Positions 18,641 to 40,363 of a stretch of DNA of 64,000 nucleotides are shown here, one piece after another. Location of the stretch: positions 155,124,001 through 155,188,000 of the forward strand of contig OX597814.1 of NCBI GenBank assembly GCA_951406725.2. The letters run 5' to 3'. Below the pieces are notes generated by a model that ran no database searches, had not been told where the DNA came from, and worked only from the letters and a program-made list of their open reading frames with translations. The position numbers were made by a program, and so were the translations under genes. Numbering within the stretch: position 1 is the stretch's first letter; each line of letters opens with the position of its first letter. Source of the stretch: Octopus vulgaris (lineage: Eukaryota).

Positions 18641-20049
18641 AATAGTATAGTAAGTCTACTTGACCAATGATGATCTAAGAATATACAACAAATTAATGAC
18701 GACGGCACACTACCGCCACTAACAACATTAAAGAAAGCAAACTAACTAACCAAAATACAAAATCTTATTGAATACTGGAAATTGATGAGCAGCTTTGTGG
18801 ATCAGAAGAATAAGATCCTTATTTGTCACAAAAAACTCGAGTTCGAATTAATATATACACATCGTGAGGGCCGCTTCAGAAAATTAACATGTGCTTGATT
18901 GTTACGCAATTTATCATACGCAGCTCGGGATCAAAATCGGAGTTCGAAATCAGACGGCAAAGTAAACTTTGCATCACTGGAAAAAACTATTATTTTTTAT
19001 ATTTGTTTATTTGTATGACAGTTGACAAAGTGTGACATTCACTACATTAAAATTAAAAAAACCCAAAAAACTGCCATAACTGTCTAAGAGGAAGGAAGGA
19101 AGAATCTACAATTAATAGGATTTCATCAGAGTAGAGTTCTGATCCGAATGCGCACGACTAAGTGGAACTTAGAGCAGCCGGGTGATTTTGCAAGCATACT
19201 CTCGAAAACCATACAGAGTTCATTCTACAGTATTCCGAGGTCTGCTGTTTGCTTGGGTTGGATCGAACTTACCTCTATGTGATTGCGAAGCGAGCTTCTT
19301 GACTACACAGTCATAGTTTATCATAGATAGACTTTCCATTGCTTTACTCAGAATTTGCAGGTGAGACACAGTGATATTAGGATTTCGGACTGACAGCTAA
19401 TGAAACATCGTTAATCTCTATGCTTTTGTTCCATACAGTTGGCAACTGACAACCTAATTAGGAAATGTGGCAATTAAAAAATCTCACTACAATACTGGCG
19501 AGGGATACAACAAAGAGTTGAAAGCCTTTCGATCGGTCATGTTTGACAGCAAATGCAAGCACATGGAACGGTAATAGATATAATCTCATAAAAAGATCGA
19601 CCAATCAATTGCTACATGTAAAAAATAAAAAAAGCTATTATGAAATTTGACTAAACTTAATAGTTCCATGATCTGCAAGTTCCATGATCTATACTCGAAA
19701 TAAACCGAACCTTCTACTTAATTTCAAGGTCAGATTGTTCCATTACCATTGAACAATCTCGATCGCGTGTTTTTCTGAAACCGAAACCATGTAAAATTAT
19801 GGGCTCCACTAGATTGACTACTCGTGATATACTGCACAAAAACACTTACGTGCAAATTTTTAGAGTTACCAGACATTGCTTTACAGTGAGTCTTACACAG
19901 ATTTCTTATGATGAAGCTTGAAAATGTAAGATGAGCTAATGACCTACAATAATTACGAACATATATGTGTGACTGTGTGCATGCGTGTACATGTACGCAG
20001 CCACCGGCCCACAGTCGACGCTATGGCGACTGTACGCAGCCACCGGCTC

Positions 20050-20288
20050 GGCTCGGAAGAAGGGGTCATATGGAATGGTCCCCTCGTTCACCAGACTTTT
20101 CTCCCCTTGATTTCTTTTTCTGGGGTATGTTGAAAGAGAAAGTTTACTCAATAAAGATTACAGATTTAAAACACATGAGAGAACGCATTACCAGTCAGTG
20201 TGCTGAACTTGATGGCAAAGTAGACTTATTTAATCAAGTTCACCTGAATTTTGCAAGGCGCGTCAAGTTATGCATTGAAAATGATGGG
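20050..20288 (+). pseudogene. Tc1/mariner-superfamily transposase C-terminal fragment
   Basis: GRRGHMEWSPRSPDFSPLDFFFWGMLKEKVY...RRVKLCIENDG matches the WPPRSPDLNPLDFFLWG motif. Confidence 0.9.
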
Positions 20289-21393
20289 GATGCTAACATC
20301 ATTACGCTTTACAAAAACAAAGGTGACCGTGGTGATTGTATCAATTACCGTGGAATATCCCTTCTAAGCACTGTTGGAAAGGCCTTTGCTCACATTATCC
20401 TGTCCAGGCTACAACTGCTTGCTTCTCGAATTTATCCTGAATCCCAGTGTGGCTTTAGAAGAAGCAGATCAACTATTGACATGATATTCTCCATACGCCA
20501 ACTTCAGGAGAAGTTCAGAGAGCAGAAAATGCCATTATATATGGCCTTCATTGATCGGACAAAGGCCTTTGACTTGGTATGTAGAAAAGGCCTCTACATC
20601 CTGCTCCAAAAAATCGGATGTCCACCAAAACTGCTGAGGATCATCAAAACTTTTCATGATGATATGCAAGGTACCATACAGCACAATGGTTCAACATGAG
20701 CCGGCTTCCAAATAAAAAACGGGGTAAAGCAAGGTTGTGTCCTTGCTCCTACATTATTTGGCATCTTCTCGCTGCTGCTGTCACATGCCTTTGAGACATC
20801 AGATGATGGAGTGTTTCTGCACAGTAGAAGTGATGGGAAACTATTCAATCTCTCGCGTCTACGTGCCAAGACCAAAATCAGAAGCGTCCTGATCAAGGAG
20901 ATGCTATTTGCTGATGATGCCGCTCTGGTATTACGCACAGAATAAGCCCTACAAAGGCTCATCAACTGTTCTGAGCAAGCATGTGGCAACTTTGACTTAG
21001 TTATCAGCCTCAAGAAGACCAACATCATGGGTCAGGCTACATCGGACATCCCAAACATACATATTGGAGACCACAGACTACAGGAGGTGGAGAAGTTTAC
21101 CTATCTTGGCTCTACCGTCACTTACAATCTATCCCTTGATGCTGAGCTCAATATACGCATTGGCAAGGCAGCTGCTGTGATGGCCCAACTCTCCAAACGG
21201 GCATGGGACAACAATAAGCAGGCCAAGACCACAAAAATGAAGATTCACCAGGCATGTGTACTTAGCACACTACTGTATGGAAGTGAGACTTGGATGCCAT
21301 ACACACGCCATACGACGCCATACGTCGCCTAAATATCTTTCACCTGCGCTGTCTCCGGAATAGGATAGGACTACACAGCCACAGCAGGAGATG
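20289..21393 (+). mobile_element. RTE-clade (BovB-like) LINE, 5'-truncated reverse transcriptase, disrupted
   Basis: DANIITLYKNKGDRGDCINYRGISLLS, PESQCGFR, GVKQGCVLAPTLF, LFADD, FTYLGS, LLYGSETW and terminal RIGLHSHSRRC; premature stops and an internal deletion. Confidence 0.95.
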
Positions 21394-31712: not shown

Positions 31713-31716
<4 letters not shown>

Positions 31717-32002
31717 TGAAGTATATTTGCCGCCTAAATGTGGCTAACCCTTTGCATCGTTCCCATCTCGAACCTGACGGGATATACACGGACCCAAGTT
31801 TCTAAGTATTGACCCAGGAACTCGGGTCCATGTGTATCACCTCAGGCTGGAGATGGGAACGACGATTTGAAAATACTGATTTGAAAACACAGATAGTGTA
31901 TCAATAGCCAGCTGAAGGAAATGTCTTCCTGGGGCTACAAGCTACAGTAGCTTCGACCCGTAAAGGGTTAGTCACATTTAGGTGGCAAATATACTTCACG
32001 AT
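31713..32002. mobile_element. Fold-back MITE with about 40-bp TIRs and an internal hairpin
   Basis: atcgtgaagtatatttgccgcctaaatgtggctaacccttt pairs with aaagggttagtcacatttaggtggcaaatatacttcacgat. Confidence 0.8.
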
Positions 32003-32724
32003 GTCGTGCAGCTACTGTTTATAACTCGCGCAGCGATTTATTATATTTATATATACATACACACAAACACACACAAACACACACACGCATATATATATAT
32101 ACACACACATATATATACATATATTTGCACATAAGCATAAATAAATATGTACATACGTGCGTGCGTGTGTGTGCGTGTGTGTATGTCTGTATATCAGTGT
32201 GTCTGTGTGTCCATGTGTTTGTGTTTATAATATGTACGTTTTTTCGCTAATGTCAGACATGATTGGTGGTACTGGTGCCCGGGTAAAATACGTCTCTCTT
32301 TATCCAAGTGTATAATCCTAATGTTGGCCATAAATGCCAGTATATATTAGTGGATTTTATTGAGAGATTACATAAAACAATTATATATATTGTATGGGGG
32401 TCGTCATCAGTCATGTCTGCATGCTATTTTTGACTATGTTGTGTATTTACGTTGGGAGTGGCATAGATCAGTTATGCTTGTATATAACAGTTTGTCGAGG
32501 GGTGGCCATAAGCTAACAGAATTAACGATATCTGTCGCAGTCTCTGTCAACCTATCTACATATACGCTATCATATGTCTTTGCCTATCCATCTGTCTTTC
32601 TCGCTAAATTACTCTCTCTCACTCTCTCTCTCTGCACGTCTGTTCACATACATTTGTGTACGTGCATGTGTATATTTTTTGTGTGTATGTGTATATGTGT
32701 ATGTGTATATACACACACAGACAT

Positions 32725-33294
32725 ACAAACGTACACAAGTATCGGCTGTTGCTTACTAAGCAATACTATCCATCGTGACATCATGTGACCTTCTTTGATC
32801 AGTTACAGTCCATTCACCGGTAGCCATCTTGGACTTCCTGCACGCCTGTTATTCGGATATTCCACCAGCCTGATACGATAGCCTCCCTTCGGGGCTTGTG
32901 AAACTTGAAGTAGCAAGGAATTAAAACCAAACCTTTGAATAATGCATGCAACTCCCAATAAATGTTTTGAGGGCCATACACACACATGTGCGCGCTTGTT
33001 TGTGTGTGTGTGTATGACGGAGTGAGTGGACATATGAAAGAAGGGGCAATATATTTTTTGGGAGTTACATGTATTATTGAAAACAGTTTGATTCGGAATC
33101 CTTGCTACTTCAAATTTCACAAACCCCTAAGAGAGGCTGTCGCACCAGGCTTGTGGGATATCCGTATGAACAGGCGTACAGGAAGTCCATGATGGCTACC
33201 GGTAGATGGACTGCAATTGGTCAAAGAAGGTCATATGATATCACGATGGTTAGTACTGCTTAGTAAGCGACAGCCGATATATGTGTACGTTTGT
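32725..33294. mobile_element. Long palindromic fold-back element (arms about 245 bp)
   Basis: 32725-32968 is the diverged reverse complement of 33050-33294. Confidence 0.88.
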
Positions 33295-33874
33295 GTATAA
33301 GGTGGGTAAATGTACACACACGCGCGCGCGCACACAGAAACACATATATAAAGCTTCTACTTTTATCCTATATATATATAGGCATAACTAAGATGAAGTT
33401 GTTTCGATTTAAGTCGTCGATTTACGTCGGTTTAAAAAAATAATATATGGAAAAATAAAGATCAAGTTAAGTAATTTTACTCGACTTTACGTCAGTCCGT
33501 CACACATTGGAATCATAAAATCACCAGAAAACCGTTAAAAGCACATAAAATCATGTTACTTGTACAATAAATAAGAATAAAAGCATATAAAATCATATTA
33601 AAATGCGTACAGTAAATGTTAAATTAAAACCATAAAGTAGTGTAGCTTAGTGAACGAAATCATGAAATCACCAAATGGTATGCATGTAGTGGTAAATTTA
33701 AAATAATTCATTTTTTTTACTAATGTGAAATAATAATAATTACTGATTTTGTTTTTTAAACTTAAAAAAGGGTCTTATTTTACCATGTCTTATTGCAAAC
33801 TGCATTCATAAATAAAACGTCCGCGATGTACGGTAAACACCGCCGAATTGTGCTCGTAAATTTAGATCACATTC

Positions 33875-34003
<129 letters not shown>

Positions 34004-35109
34004 CATATACACAACTTATAAATAAGGGCAAACGAAAAAAATGTTCTAATGCCAAATATGCCGAAATTAGACACATAGTCTATAACCATATAGTTTATCA
34101 CAATACGCACGCTACTCGAAAAAGGTCGACAGAAATTTCTAAAATATTCCATTATTACCATATCGCACCGATTTCAGGTATATATATATATATTATGTAA
34201 TATATATATTATATAATATATAATTTAGATATATTTTTACTATTATTACTGTATGAATTGTGAGTGTATATGTATGCATGTACGATGTATATATATATAT
34301 ATGTATGTATGTATGTATACGATATAAATATAAACATAGAACATTATGCGTGCATGCGTGTCTGACACTGCTCGTGATCAAAACACTAATACCACCCAAC
34401 ATAGCAATTCAACTTGTCCCATAAGTGATTTTGGTATGGCAGTAGGAACCATCGCTAAGTCTCACACTGTTTCATCAAAAGTATTGCAACGTCGATAGTG
34501 GCAGAAGTACAGGACAGTTTTATTGTCATCCAACTTCCTGCAACGGTGTGTCACGGTAGAAAACATATGCTGTATTCTAAATACATTTGTGTAGTTTGTC
34601 AGGCGTTACTGAACTCATAGGAAGAAAACAAATGGCTAGTGAAGAGAAAGAGAACGCCGTTTCATACCTACCAAAAAGAAAACAACAAAAATACCAAATA
34701 ATAAGTAAAAAAACAACAACAAAAAACAAAAACAAAGCGTCAGTCAACAAAGAACTCAATAAATAAATAAATACATTCAATGAAGAATAATTTGTACCAT
34801 GTCAAAGCACTGGAAATCCAGAAATTGGATTACGTGCGTGACGTAAAATATTTGTTTTCAGTGCGAATAAAGCACCTTGTGGTTAAAGTATATCAATTCA
34901 AACATCTCTCCCATCTAAAGATAGCGCATAATTTTCAAGGAAGGAACGTGTGCTATACTGTACATCGCGTGTGTTTATTTCTAGAGTGCAACCATTTTAT
35001 ATGATAAGCTTTCATTTTGTTCTGTGCCCTTCATTCAGTCAACAATCGAAGGAAAGAGAATTTTAGAAATATACTTAAAGCGAGTAGTCACATCAAAGTG
35101 GCAGGTAAA

Positions 35110-35360
35110 TGCTACTACTAGTTTAATCCAAGGTGGATTCTTCGCCAGGTGGTTTTCGGTGCAAGCTCTGCACCCTTTATATACAATATATCTCTAGCAG
35201 GGGAGAGCGAACCCCTATTATTACACAGCAGCTGACAGGATCGCGGGACCGGCCAATTTCGAGCCATTTGGCTCTCATCAGCTGCACGTGCCTGCGCAGT
35301 GGAGTAATAGCAAAGACTCACTTCAGCAAGCTTCTGCGAGCTTGTACGAGCTTCTGCTAG
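35110..35360 (+). mobile_element. GC-rich Helitron-like element
   Basis: caagcttctgcgagcttg hairpin shortly before terminal CTAG|T; internal gcagctga/tcagctgc stem. Confidence 0.35.
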
Positions 35361-35509
35361 TTATAACATCTCAAGAGATAGAATAGTAACGTATATTAAA
35401 CAGTAAATACTCACACACACACACACGCGCGCGCACGGACACACACACACACACACACGCACACATACACACAGTGAAAAGTTAATTTAATTTATTCTTG
35501 TATGCTTTT

Positions 35510-35553
35510 AAACTGTCCGTCGAACGGGAACGTGAAATGCTGAGTAACAGTTT
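35510..35553 (+). ncRNA. Type I hammerhead-like motif (family H2), second copy
   Basis: aaactgt-CCGTCGA-acg(ggaa)cgt-GAAA-tgctgag-TA-acagttt; homologous to 3148-3194. Confidence 0.6.
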
Positions 35554-35633
35554 TGCGAATATTTGGAAGCTTTAAAGAAGTCTATCTATCTATCTATCTA
35601 TCTGTCTCTCTCTCTCTATATATATATATATAT

Positions 35634-35667
<34 letters not shown>

Positions 35668-35670
35668 TAT

Positions 35671-36016
35671 ATAACATAAGGGACTAAAGCCATCTGAATA
35701 TGGCTAGGGACAGGGCAGGGTGGTGGGGGTGTTACTGTTGCATTTAGCCCCAGGCGAACATCGACGTCACCAGAAAGGCTCGACACCGTCACGGTGTCCT
35801 TAACCTGCAAAGGGAGGTAATTCCCCGATGAAGCGGAAACCACACACGGATGATGGTTTCAAGGTGTATTGCCTATCGTCGGCGTGTGGTAGGCTTCCGC
35901 TTCCTCGACGAATTCTCACTCTGCAGGATATTCATATATAGATTTTCAAGCAAAATACATTTGCTGATTTCGAAAATCTGTTCGAAAGCAATAATAATTC
36001 TCTAAAAGAGATATAG
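35671..36016 (-). repeat. Inverted 346-bp copy of the 360-bp monomer
   Basis: Reverse complement of the monomer lacking 14 nt (cgagcagttactgt); two substitutions at 35851-35852. Confidence 0.97.
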
Positions 36017-37458
36017 CTTTCGAACAGATTTTCGAAATCAGCAAATGTATTTTGCTTGAAAATCTATATATGAATATCCTGCAGAGTGAGAATTCGTCGA
36101 GGAAGCGGAAGCCTACCACACGCCGACGATAGGCAATACACCTTGAAACCATGGTCCGTGTGTGGTTTCCGCTTCATCGGGGAATTACCTCCCTTTGCAG
36201 GTTAAGGACACCGTGACGGTGTCGAGCCTTTCTGGTGACGTCGATGTTCGCCTGGGGCTAAATGCAACAGTAACACCCCCACCACCCTGCCCTGTCCCTA
36301 GCCATATTCAGATGGCTTTAGTCCCTTATGTTATCGAGCAGTTACTGTCTATATCTCTTTTAGAGAATTATTATTGCTTTCGAACAGATTTTCGAAATCA
36401 GCAAATGTATTTTGCTTGAAAATCTATATATGAATATCCTGCAGAGTGAGAATTCGTCGAGGAAGCGGAAGCCTACCACACGCCGACGATAGGCAATACA
36501 CCTTGAAACCATGGTCCGTGTGTGGTTTCCGCTTCATCGGGGAATTACCTCCCTTTGCAGGTTAAGGACACCGTGACGGTGTCGAGCCTTTCTGGTGACG
36601 TCGATGTTCGCCTGGGGCTAAATGCAACAGTAACACCCCCACCACCCTGCCCTGTCCCTAGCCATATTCAGATGGCTTTAGTCCCTTATGTTATCGAGCA
36701 GTTACTGTCTATATCTCTTTTAGAGAATTATTATTGCTTTCGAACAGATTTTCGAAATCAGCAAATGTATTTTGCTTGAAAATCTATATATGAATATCCT
36801 GCAGAGTGAGAATTCGTCGAGGAAGCGGAAGCCTACCACACGCCGACGATAGGCAATACACCTTGAAACCATGGTCCGTGTGTGGTTTCCGCTTCATCGG
36901 GGAATTACCTCCCTTTGCAGGTTAAGGACACCGTGACGGTGTCGAGCCTTTCTGGTGACGTCGATGTTCGCCCAGGGCTAAATGCAACAGTAACACCCCC
37001 ACCACCCTGCCCTGTCCCTAGCCATATTCAGATGGCTTTAGTCCCTTATGTTATCGAGCAGTTACTGTCTATATCTCTTTTAGAGAATTATTATTGCTTT
37101 CGAACAGATTTTCGAAATCAGCAAATGTATTTTGCTTGAAAATCTATATATGAATATCCTGCAGAGTGAGAATTCGTCGAGGAAGCGGAAGCCTACCACA
37201 CGCCGACGATAGGCAATACACCTTGAAACCATGGTCCGTGTGTGGTTTCTGCTTCATCGGGGAATTACCTCCCTTTGCAGGTTAAGGACACCGTGACGGT
37301 GTCGAGCCTTTCTGGTGACGTCGATGTTCGCCTGGGGCTAAATGCAACAGTAACACCTCCACCACCCTGCCCTGTCCCTAGCCATATTCAGATGGCTTTA
37401 GTCCCTTATGTTATCGAGCAGTTACTGTCTATATCTCTTTTAGAGAATTATTATTGCT
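36016..37458 (+). repeat. Tandem array of four near-identical 360-bp structured monomers (retrozyme-like)
   Basis: Exact period of 360 (starts 36016, 36376, 36736, 37096); only four substitutions seen; ends in (TA)n. Confidence 0.97.
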
Positions 37459-37473
37459 ATATATATATATATT

Positions 37474-37532
<59 letters not shown>

Positions 37533-37841
37533 GTATGGAACAATACACTTGAATACAGAACTTAACACCAGTTTATAGTAGTAATCAACCGTTACTATTA
37601 TGAATAACCACATATACACAAATATTCACAAACATATACATATACATTTGTGTGTGCGTGTATGTGTGTGTGCGTGTGTGTGCATGTAAATATATGAGTA
37701 TTGATAAAAAGGTTATTAGATATTAGGGTACCTAAAGTTTGACTTGCAAAGTACTCTTCACTATTGTAACTTGGAGAATGAATGCTCGATATACACACAC
37801 ACGCACACACACATACACACACACACACGCATGTATGTTTA

Positions 37842-37896
<55 letters not shown>

Positions 37897-38087
37897 GGAG
37901 AAAGACACAGAGAGAGAGACAAAAAAGACCGAGATAGAGAGGTAGTCGGTGAGATCGATGGACCAAAAGATAGAGAGAAAGATTGGTATATATATATATA
38001 AACAAGAAAACACAGAAAAAACACAGCAACGCGAGGACGTGGAACAATTAAAGTATTATTTGACGCTCAGGAAAGAAGGGAAGGAGG

Positions 38088-38122
38088 GTTTAACGTTTCG
38101 AGCGGAGCTCTTCGTCGGAAAC
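38088..38122 (-). ncRNA. Minimal type I hammerhead-like motif (family H1)
   Basis: Reverse complement gttt-CCGACGA-a-gagc(tcc)gctc-GAAAC-GTT-aaac. Confidence 0.75.
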
Positions 38123-38743
38123 AAAGGAGAAGGAAACATCCCGAGAAGGGAAAACAGAGGAAAAAAAAATTTTTGCTGGTGGTGCTCAAGAGATCACATG
38201 TATATATCCACAGACACAGGCACACACACACACACACACATATATATAGATAGCGAGAAAAATAACTGGTGAAGCATACATATCTATGTGTGTGCGTGCA
38301 AAGATTAAAATCCCTCATATAAACTAACTCACTTATGAAGCAATATATGGCAAATTCTTTGACGAAACTTTTCCCTAAGTATTTTGTAAGGGGCCACAAC
38401 GTAATAAATGCATTTAAGCATATAATATGACATTTAGTATCGGATTGTTTTTTTCCCTGTTATAAGAGTTCTTTGTTCTTATCTCAAGCTGAACCTCACT
38501 TGCTCCTATTTCTGCCCTCTTACGCAACCTTGCCTTGTACCAGTCTTTTTATATTAGACTATGCTGGCCGACACTATCCATTTCCATTGCCCATCCTAGC
38601 CAGAATGTCGAAATATATTAGAATCACCCTCTTCCCTAATACATTTTCTGTCCATGTCTTTCGCTTTTTCTTTTTCTCTCGCTTTCTCGTTGTTTTGCTT
38701 TTTCTGCACACATATTCAAATACGTTCCTTTTCTGCGTATATG

Positions 38744-39278
38744 CATACATACATACATATAAGCATACATACATAAATACATAAATACATACATACATAC
38801 ATACATATATACATATATACAAGCATACATACATACATACATACATACATACATGCATACATACATACATACATGCATACATACATACATACATACATAC
38901 ATACATACATACATACATACACACACACATACACACACACATACATACATACATACATACATACATACATACATACATGCATACATACATACATACATGC
39001 ATACATACATACATACATATTTACATACATAAATACATACATACATATTTACATACATATATACTCAGATACTTATGTATGTATGTATGTATGTATGCAT
39101 GCATGTATGTATGTATGTATGTATGTATGTATGTATGTATGTATGTATGTATGTATGTATGTATGTATGCAGAAAAGGGACGCTTCTGAATATGTCAGGA
39201 GAAACAGAAAAACGACGGGGTAGAAACAGAAAAAGAGAAAAAGAAGTTTGTATGTATGTAAGTATATGCATATATATG

Positions 39279-39313
<35 letters not shown>

Positions 39314-39926
39314 TTATGTATCTTTATATGTGTGATATTCATGCGTGCGTAGGGGTGGGGATGCATGTGGGTAGTTATTTCTAGCTTAGTTTCCATCATT
39401 TTATATACAGCTCCTTGAAAGGACTCTTCAAAATAGTACGATTTCTTGTTATTGCGTCATATACTGTATATGCATACATACATACATACATCATACATAC
39501 ATACATACATACATACATACATACATACATACATACATACATACATACATACATACATACATACATACATACACACACACATACACACACACATACATAC
39601 ATACATACATACATACATACATACATGCATACATACATACATACATGCATACATACATACATACATATTTACATACATAAATACATACATACATATTTAC
39701 ATACATATATACTCAGACACTTATGTATGTATGTATGTATGTATGCATGCATGTATGTATGTATGTATGTATGTATGTATGTATGTATGTATGTACGTAT
39801 GTATGTATGTATGTATGCAGAAAAGGGACGCTTCTGAATATGTCAGGAGAAACAGAAAAACGACGGGGTAGAAACAGAAAAAGAGAAAAAGAAGTTTGTA
39901 TGTATGTAAGTATATGCATATATATG

Positions 39927-39961
<35 letters not shown>

Positions 39962-40177
39962 TTATGTATCTTTATATGTGTGATATTCATGCGTGCGTAG
40001 GGGTGGGGATGCATGTGGGTAGTTATTTCTAGCTTAGTTTCCATCATTTTATATACAGCTCCTTGAAAGGACTCTTCAAAATAGTACGATTTCTTGTTAT
40101 TGCGTCATATACTGTATATGCATACATACATACATACATCATACATACATACATACATACATACATACATACATACA

Positions 40178-40230
<53 letters not shown>
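38744..40230. repeat. 648-bp tandem duplication containing opposed (CATA)n/(TATG)n tracts
   Basis: Unique block 39169-39477 recurs at 39817-40125. Confidence 0.95.
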
Positions 40231-40241
<11 letters not shown>

Positions 40242-40363
40242 TACATATATATATAAATGTGCGTGTGTTTATACATATTTATATATATGCACGTATGCTT
40301 CTATGTATATATACGTATATATATATACATATATGTATACATATCTATCTATCCGTCTACCTA

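Follow-up and report, generated by a model that had tools for sequence, protein, structure and literature searches.

The tandem array in the window, by which we mean the whole 64,000-nucleotide stretch of Octopus vulgaris DNA that was analyzed, is best read as an insertion of a non-coding 360-nt family of the retrozyme type with a U4C hammerhead fold, likely copied into (TA)n by the reverse transcriptase–endonuclease of a Penelope-like element (PLE), probably of the Neptune type, from an RNA that was probably circular. We place the probability of this reading at about 0.7. The 360-nt repeat family of the window is called family A, its sister families are named B, C, and D, and the unit of family A is numbered from window position 36335.

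As Table 1 shows, the array consists of a long direct arm and a short inverted arm between two TA tracts. Tandem Repeats Finder (TRF) reports a period of 360 and 4.0 copies for the direct array, in agreement with the tandem 360-bp monomers that had been recognized from the letters. The description of these as exactly four copies holds as a count; the number itself is coincidental, being set by an inner junction whose position varies (family-wide, arm lengths span 65–3,922 nt). The inverted 346-bp monomer of the original prediction is also found, with a complementarity of 99%, and (TA)n is seen at both outer ends. Copy 2 matches copy 1 at every position, and 2 nt each separate copy 1 from copy 3, from copy 4, and from the inverted arm. 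The GC content of the monomer is 46.4%, compared with 29–42% in the adjacent 1-kb bins (33001–36000 and 37001–40000), so the copies are, as had been claimed, both nearly identical and richer in GC than their surroundings. The longest frame without a stop in the family A unit is 90 codons. The + strand of the monomer folds well below its shuffles (z = −5.2 as a linear and −6.8 as a circular molecule), mainly through a rod of ∼125 nt. Each arm would represent cDNA primed from a different target strand.

Table 1. Coordinates of the array, its predicted structural elements, and a sister-family insertion in the window
Feature	Position	Strand	Remarks
Insertion of older sister family B	31714..32047	+	inserted in (TA)n; both ends and tail as in family A; inverted arm short
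Left (TA)n target tract	35617..35673		TRF
Inverted arm, 346 nt	35671..36016	-	outer terminus at 35671, fixed end B (unit position 360)
Hammerhead fold, inverted arm (predicted)	35843..35888	-	substitutions at 35851-35852 break stem III palindrome
Direct arm, 4.0 monomers	36012..37458	+	outer terminus at 37457-37458, fixed end A (unit position 43/44)
Head-to-head inversion junction	36012..36016		overlap 1-5 nt
Long imperfect rod, ~125 nt, hammerhead at tip	36077..36200	+	predicted fold
Type I hammerhead fold, copy 1 (predicted)	36117..36162	+	6-bp stem I, 3-bp stem II, GAAA
Core CCGACGA (U4C, U7C), copy 1	36123-36129	+	
Short stem III, copy 1 hammerhead	within 36117..36162	+	contains palindromic hexamer
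GUC triplet, copy 1	36154-36156	+	predicted cleavage after 36156
3' module common to sister families	36251..36378	+	7-bp helix around end B, with compensatory change; 5-bp hairpin
Hammerhead fold, copy 2 (predicted)	36477..36522	+	
Hammerhead fold, copy 3 (predicted)	36837..36882	+	
Hammerhead fold, copy 4 (predicted)	37197..37242	+	
44-nt "tail" between ends B and A	37415..37458	+	closes direct arm; missing from inverted-arm end
Right (TA)n target tract	37458..37536		TRF

The array is one insertion of a young, dispersed family that occurs throughout the genome. Searching 2.8 Gb in 227 contigs with the monomer gave 948 first-look candidates, and the 40 that were scored are spread over many contigs and include full-length matches at 96–100% identity. 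Copies of the family A hammerhead motif number 1,476. The dispersed, young multimers that had been anticipated are thus borne out. Long arrays at few loci, which are a feature of satellites, were not encountered, and the arms lie scattered over many contigs.

The outer ends were mapped in 81 distinct insertions. Twenty-two of these came from the best monomer matches; the others were taken from the remaining monomer matches and from motif lists ordered by position, and most of them are on contig C1. Because of how the loci were picked, the sample leans to complete, young copies. Two classes account for 132 of the 139 outer ends, and seven ends lie elsewhere. End A comprises 68 ends at unit positions 40–45 (55 of them at 44), and end B comprises 64 at positions 355–1 (57 at 360), which places the two fixed sites 44 nt apart. 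Two arms in head-to-head orientation are present at 59 of the 81 loci, a single arm at 21, and a scrambled arrangement at one. Among the two-armed loci, 52 of 59 combine one A end with one B end and seven have one irregular end; no AA or BB pair was seen, and the long arm may be either. The expectation of a variable start phase did not hold, since the outer ends are fixed and the inner inversion junction alone varies, being spread all around the unit with overlaps mostly of 0–5 nt. (TA)n adjoins 116 of the 139 outer ends. At loci with unique flanks, target duplications of 12–13 bp (L022, L063, L064, and L077) and of 8 bp (L205) are observed. The family has no LTRs, and apart from the unit its termini carry no direct repeats. 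Inner junctions are not enriched at the predicted cleavage site, with 11 of 139 falling in unit positions 174–198 and about 10 expected. Separately, the 43-nt tail region holds 30 of 139 inner junctions where about 17 would be expected, a pattern that would fit stalling of synthesis close to the priming sites.

Read together, the two fixed ends, the inverted arms, and the duplications form the "tail" signature of Penelope-like elements, with the 44 nt from end B to end A as the counterpart of the PLE tail, and they support the Penelope-type mobilization that the original prediction had put forward. In the published description, a PLE insertion is a partial tandem truncated at its 5' end and accompanied by an inverted copy, likewise 5'-truncated, and by an optional tail of 30–40 bp (PMC8557442); the same layout is found in rotifers (PMC3846280). 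A purified PLE protein, Poseidon PAc, nicks and extends both DNA strands in vitro, and its reverse transcription begins inside the RNA at two sites, the tail being the distance between them (PMC11167929). The strict pairing of one A with one B end, which limits how a PLE dimer can use its RNA, is not stated in the accessible text of PMC11167929, PMC8557442, or PMC3846280.

Head-to-head arms, junction microhomology, and target duplications would look alike if a SINE-like element had been moved by a LINE (RTE, R4, or L1), with the inversion arising from ordinary twin priming. However, twin priming would leave a single 3' end fixed and the second priming site free to vary, with arms from different parts of the RNA, whereas in family A both ends are fixed, 44 nt apart, and the arms repeat the same sequence many times. 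The family also has no poly(A) or simple-repeat tail. We regard such an origin as very improbable. Inverted repeats and near-identical tandem units are, in addition, error-prone in assembly, and collapsed or fold-back reads could underlie a case such as the mosaic locus L074 described below. As an explanation of the arrays, an assembly artefact is nonetheless scarcely credible, given that 81 independent loci, as well as diverged sister families, show these two ends, that the target duplications are unique, and that the head-to-tail joint is present in contigs of all four public runs examined, a type of data from which strand, ends, and level cannot be read.

With the Penelope-type insertion as the preferred reading, we turn to the ribozyme. 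The original prediction reported no canonical hammerhead, and this stands in so far as CUGAnGA is absent from the window monomer on either strand; it does not extend to the fold, since every monomer carries a type I hammerhead fold with a variant core, a fold with compensatory changes across three sister families. Of the 143 cells of the structure in 11 sequences from families A, B, and C, 142 pair and 15 show compensatory change, located in stems I and II and the stem III palindrome; with an alignment trimmed to the motif and built from related sequences, the counts lean to the motif and the shuffle control yields no probability. The relaxed motif occurs in 6 of 5,000 shuffles of the monomer. 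The stem III hexamer is self-complementary in three different sequences in families A and C and in some B copies, and a self-complementary stem III is a dimer-type hammerhead design (PMC4209133). An Rfam search of the monomer gave no match to a hammerhead or other ribozyme, which is uninformative because a sister copy from family B with the canonical core was missed too. In the predicted fold of the monomer, the core and the cleavage triplet are base-paired, corresponding to an inactive form, and forcing the core open in folding still did not give a complete hammerhead fold. A relaxed hammerhead scan of the minus strand was negative. For the 3' module, a twister, an HDV-like ribozyme, and a minus-strand hammerhead were also weighed by eye and set aside, as required elements are missing.

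The canonical core CUGANGA is found in none of the 1,476 family A motif copies, in which the cores are CCGAYGA, UUGAYGA, or UUGAUAA. A hand count of the first 100 copies along C1 gives CCGACGA in 35, CCGAUGA in 48, UUGAUGA in 7, UUGAUAA in 8, and UUGACGA in 2, corresponding to U4C in 83 and C3U in 17. The G10.1–C11.1 pair that is usual in hammerheads is missing from family A. An older subfamily carries the U3–A8 core, which is a natural covariant of the hammerhead core, and U4C lowers activity in vitro and still permits viroid infectivity (PMC3088659). Young copies retain the stem III palindrome and the GUC. Because no copy is canonical, the family A ribozyme may be dead. At least two tandem hammerheads are present at 15 of 28 loci with CC cores and at 0 of 13 loci with UU cores (hand count; p = 0.001). 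Within a locus, copies with CC cores diverge by 0.2% and those with UU cores by 0.8%, making the latter about four times older (L065, L072, L074, L190, and two noisy stretches were dropped from this comparison). The association of core type with array length is therefore confounded by age, since the UU loci are older and old arrays may collapse.

The sister families share the architecture of family A. The family B insertion in the window, 4 kb upstream of the array, is 63% identical to the monomer and belongs to a family with a unit of ∼354 nt and 2,066 candidates in the genome, which has the same two ends and tail. Other copies of family B read CUGAUGA, stem II, GAAA, short stem III, and GUC at the tip of the rod. 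Family C has units of 355–359 nt and 644 motif matches. At the homologous place of the core, the window monomer has CCGACGA, family B CUGAUGA, and family C UUGACGA. Tandem hammerheads occur in 0 of 30 records for B and in 4 of 29, some of them overlapping, for C. From its conservation in the sister families, the 3' module is tentatively read as the region where the reverse transcriptase binds and starts. Directly upstream of the rod, the window (36064–36076) and families A, B, and C have a TATA-like run, possibly an internal promoter. One family C copy sits inside a local tandem repeat of ∼1.38 kb (L172–L175 and L183; G000:C1:94.32 Mb). Family D (L099:16-300; L142) is a short retrozyme-like unit with a U3–A8 core that weakly resembles the monomer profile. 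A different hammerhead-like repeat, with a 7–8-bp stem I and the core CCGACGA, is present at window positions 35510–35553 and at L085 and L134; the window copy, 120 bp left of the array, has a core decayed to CCGUCGA. This repeat is a third element with U4C. Elsewhere in the window, positions 38823–40255 hold a local tandem duplication with a period of ∼648 bp, 98% identical and largely made of microsatellites. A stop-free frame of 248 codons at 19953–20696 (+) contains the stretch WSPRSPDFSPLDFFFWG, which we take to be typical of Tc1/mariner transposase remnants.

A supposed second family with the shared 3' motif proved to be a Helitron with a ∼70-nt segment and no helper. This abundant non-autonomous Helitron of ∼480 bp (TC...hairpin-CTAG; L031, L035–L039, L042, L043, L047, L050–L054, L056–L058, and L014:2100-2161) has a ∼70-nt segment homologous to the retrozyme 3' module. 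The segment in common with the monomer would fit an origin of the arrays at the DNA level, as a Helitron-type rolling-circle product; a dispersed satellite would be another such origin. However, Helitrons are marked by a 5' TC, a 3' hairpin followed by CTRR, and a lack of target duplications, and the ends of family A have neither the TC...CTAG termini nor the 3' hairpin of that Helitron. Family A insertions show target duplications, inversions, and free inner truncation, and family A arrays are short and scattered. The end analysis largely refutes a DNA-level origin, and we find it barely plausible.

For insertion from RNA, the form of the template was judged from variants at sites covered at least twice per locus. 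Variants shared between loci were fixed within a locus in 300 cases and polymorphic in 48, the latter mostly in single copies. Private variants comprised 97 singletons, 4 partial cases, and 7 fixed in all covered copies, 5 of the last across both arms (2–3 copies each). At L063, a single haplotype runs through both arms (3,289 nt and 1,125 nt). At L072, L077, and L080, variants are present in only some of the copies, and L074 (G000:C14:72704500-72712500) and L190 are mosaic arrays of haplotypes that are pure at other loci. A single circle would not yield these mosaics without template switching; they may reflect such switching, a linear mosaic template, or assembly error. The public runs X5 and X6 each gave a self-closing, single-haplotype contig of 390 nt, of guessed RNA status and of a kind into which tandem DNA assembles as well. 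Because the copies of an array, in either arm, mostly agree in their subfamily variants, a circular template is favored over a linear one, by roughly three to one, and rolling reverse transcription on a circle is the favored mode.

The contending explanation accepts a Penelope-type insertion and takes the hammerhead to be dead: the template would be a linear read-through multimer, arrays would beget arrays, and length would be regained by template jumping or local unequal crossing-over. The lack of a canonical core in all 1,476 copies, the confinement of the longest arrays to CC-core subfamilies, and the mosaics at L074 and L190 would all fit, and insertion in vitro did not need hammerhead cleavage (PMC11167929). 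Yet internal priming and 5' truncation would shorten linear arrays in each generation, and the youngest subfamilies have arms of 6–11 monomers. Moreover, many single-change haplotypes, each uniform over both inverted arms, point to repeated one-monomer bottlenecks, no linked variant set recurs between loci on inspection of the listed polymorphic variants, and young copies still have both the stem III palindrome and the GUC. We consider a dead ribozyme with a linear template unlikely and proceed with the circular template.

The enzyme was sought among the GIY-YIG matches in the genome, of which there are 6,136 candidates. Among the 150 scored, intact frames combining a reverse transcriptase, a Cys-linker, and GIY-YIG were found in two families, N1 and N5. 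In both, Pfam RVT_1 falls below the cut-off and GIY-YIG above it, and we provisionally assign them to the Neptune type from the linker motif alone. The (TA)n bias of PLEs has been linked to a CX2-5CxxC linker, in Neptune/Naiad (PMC8557442). N5 (L219, L221, L230, and L243; G000:C1:27840800-27849800), a very young autonomous family, has a 775-codon frame and an upstream frame, occurs as two identical 4,271-bp units in exact head-to-tail tandem, and is ∼100% identical among 40 scored copies. Its tail is ∼46 nt long, compared with 44 nt in family A and ∼35 nt in N1. The core of its pLTR hammerhead is CCGAAGA; in a hand count of the first 100 of 1,542 motifs, CCGAAGA occurs 72 times, CCGAAUA twice, the canonical CUGAAGA 25 times, and another core once. 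Three family A insertions (L034, L067, and L068) have an N5 end at a distance of 20–137 bp, on the other side of a TA tract. On C1 from 0 to 140 Mb, this adjacency is seen at 3 of 39 loci, compared with 0.06 expected under uniform placement with 40 loci used, and it may reflect a shared preference for long TA tracts. No further N5 end, and no N1 end, was found in 209 kb of family A flanks and 211 kb of other loci.

Nucleotide homology of the monomer to N5, N1, or the other GIY-YIG/PLE loci examined was not found (150 of 6,136 candidates scored), nor was a match to a PLE terminus (pLTR) in L081–L126, L219–L230, and the N5 unit. Because of its CCGA core, its similar tail length, and its position next to 3 of 39 sampled insertions, N5 is the best helper candidate for family A. 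N1 (L111–L126), also active and with many intact copies, has a 781-codon frame in all 16 fetched copies, which were picked for that frame; it ends in (TA)n and has hammerhead core boxes (UUGAUAA...GAAA), with stem I not evident. With its tail of ∼35 nt, no adjacency, and no homology, it was set aside as the weaker candidate. Recently active Penelope families have been listed in an octopus, in an article whose main text makes no mention of ribozymes (PMC13282606).

From these elements, the following course can be proposed. Family A arrays would be transcribed in the + sense, an orientation adopted because of the analogy with two-site initiation in PLEs (PMC11167929). Adjacent hammerheads would pair through their stem III palindromes and slowly cleave the RNA 3' of GUC, and a host ligase would close 360-nt circles. 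The helper protein would nick a TA tract with a stagger of ∼12 bp, and each DNA 3' end would prime reverse transcription at one internal site, A from one strand and B from the other. Reverse transcription would then roll around the template over distances that vary and can reach 11 turns, and the inversion would arise where microhomology joins the two cDNA ends. Owing to the weakened core, templates would stay uncut for the time needed to be copied over many rounds. A broader proposal, which we hold tentatively and at somewhat less than even odds, is that a PLE enzyme carries out double rolling-circle reverse transcription of a small RNA circle from both strands of one staggered cut, with one arm for each fixed start site, and that the parasite RNA and its helper independently fixed U4C because slower self-cleavage gives longer, self-propagating arrays. 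Searches with CUGANGA would miss such families, and animal retrozymes would be undercounted.

The mobilizing enzyme and the circular template of animal retrozymes are still hypotheses, and mobilization by PLEs has been put forward from co-occurrence and pLTR similarity (PMC7229834; bioRxiv 10.64898/2026.07.22.740005). In family A, the Penelope integration footprint can be read directly at dozens of very young insertions, and with an intact candidate helper the hypothesis becomes testable in vitro with a 360-nt RNA. The lack of any canonical-core copy, together with U4C in the autonomous N5, bears on the role of hammerheads in PLEs, and searches restricted to CUGANGA miss successful families. 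A literature search, with most subscription journals outside its scope, returned no description of family A, of fixed-end inverted arms in a retrozyme, or of a genomic family with U4C; family A may be listed in the supplements of PMC7229834, PMC13282606, or the 2026 preprint, or in Repbase/Dfam.

Compared with known systems, family A is closest to the animal non-LTR retrozymes (PMC7229834; bioRxiv 10.64898/2026.07.22.740005). As in those elements, the units are non-coding tandem repeats of 170–400 nt with GC below 50%, each has a type I hammerhead fold with a short palindromic stem III, target duplications exceed 4 bp (12–13 bp at four family A loci and 8 bp at one), and PLEs co-occur in the genome. 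The retrozyme-like nature originally proposed for the array is upheld by its tandem non-coding units, hammerhead fold, and dispersal. The differences are that the family A core is never CUGANGA, that its predicted fold, unlike that of most animal retrozymes, would block the ribozyme, that it showed no pLTR homology to an autonomous partner among the loci compared, and that the accessible text of those two reports contains no description of ends fixed at two sites or of inverted arms. The Neptune-type endonuclease PLEs and Poseidon PAc (PMC11167929, PMC8557442, PMC3846280) share with family A a tail between two fixed 3' ends, an inverted 5'-truncated arm, partial tandems, (TA)n targeting, and a hammerhead upstream of the start sites. 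In contrast to them, family A has no ORF and a whole unit of 360 nt, its tail is 44 nt rather than the published 30–40 nt, and both of its arms may span many whole units. MRC1 and non-autonomous Chlamys (PMC8557442) likewise have short non-coding units and multicopy head-to-tail insertions; their 3' end, however, resembles that of the autonomous partner, whereas no 3' similarity was found for family A, and Chlamys elements are mostly without hammerheads, whereas family A retains the fold. Among natural core variants (PMC3088659, PMC4209133), U3–A8 also occurs in the older family A subfamily, and U4C, which in a viroid is weak but viable, is here the majority state of two young, high-copy families (A and N5) and is seen in a third. 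Because the canonical core is absent, family A is classed as a variant rather than a canonical member, and on its sequence features our verdict is that it represents a new variant of the animal non-LTR retrozymes.
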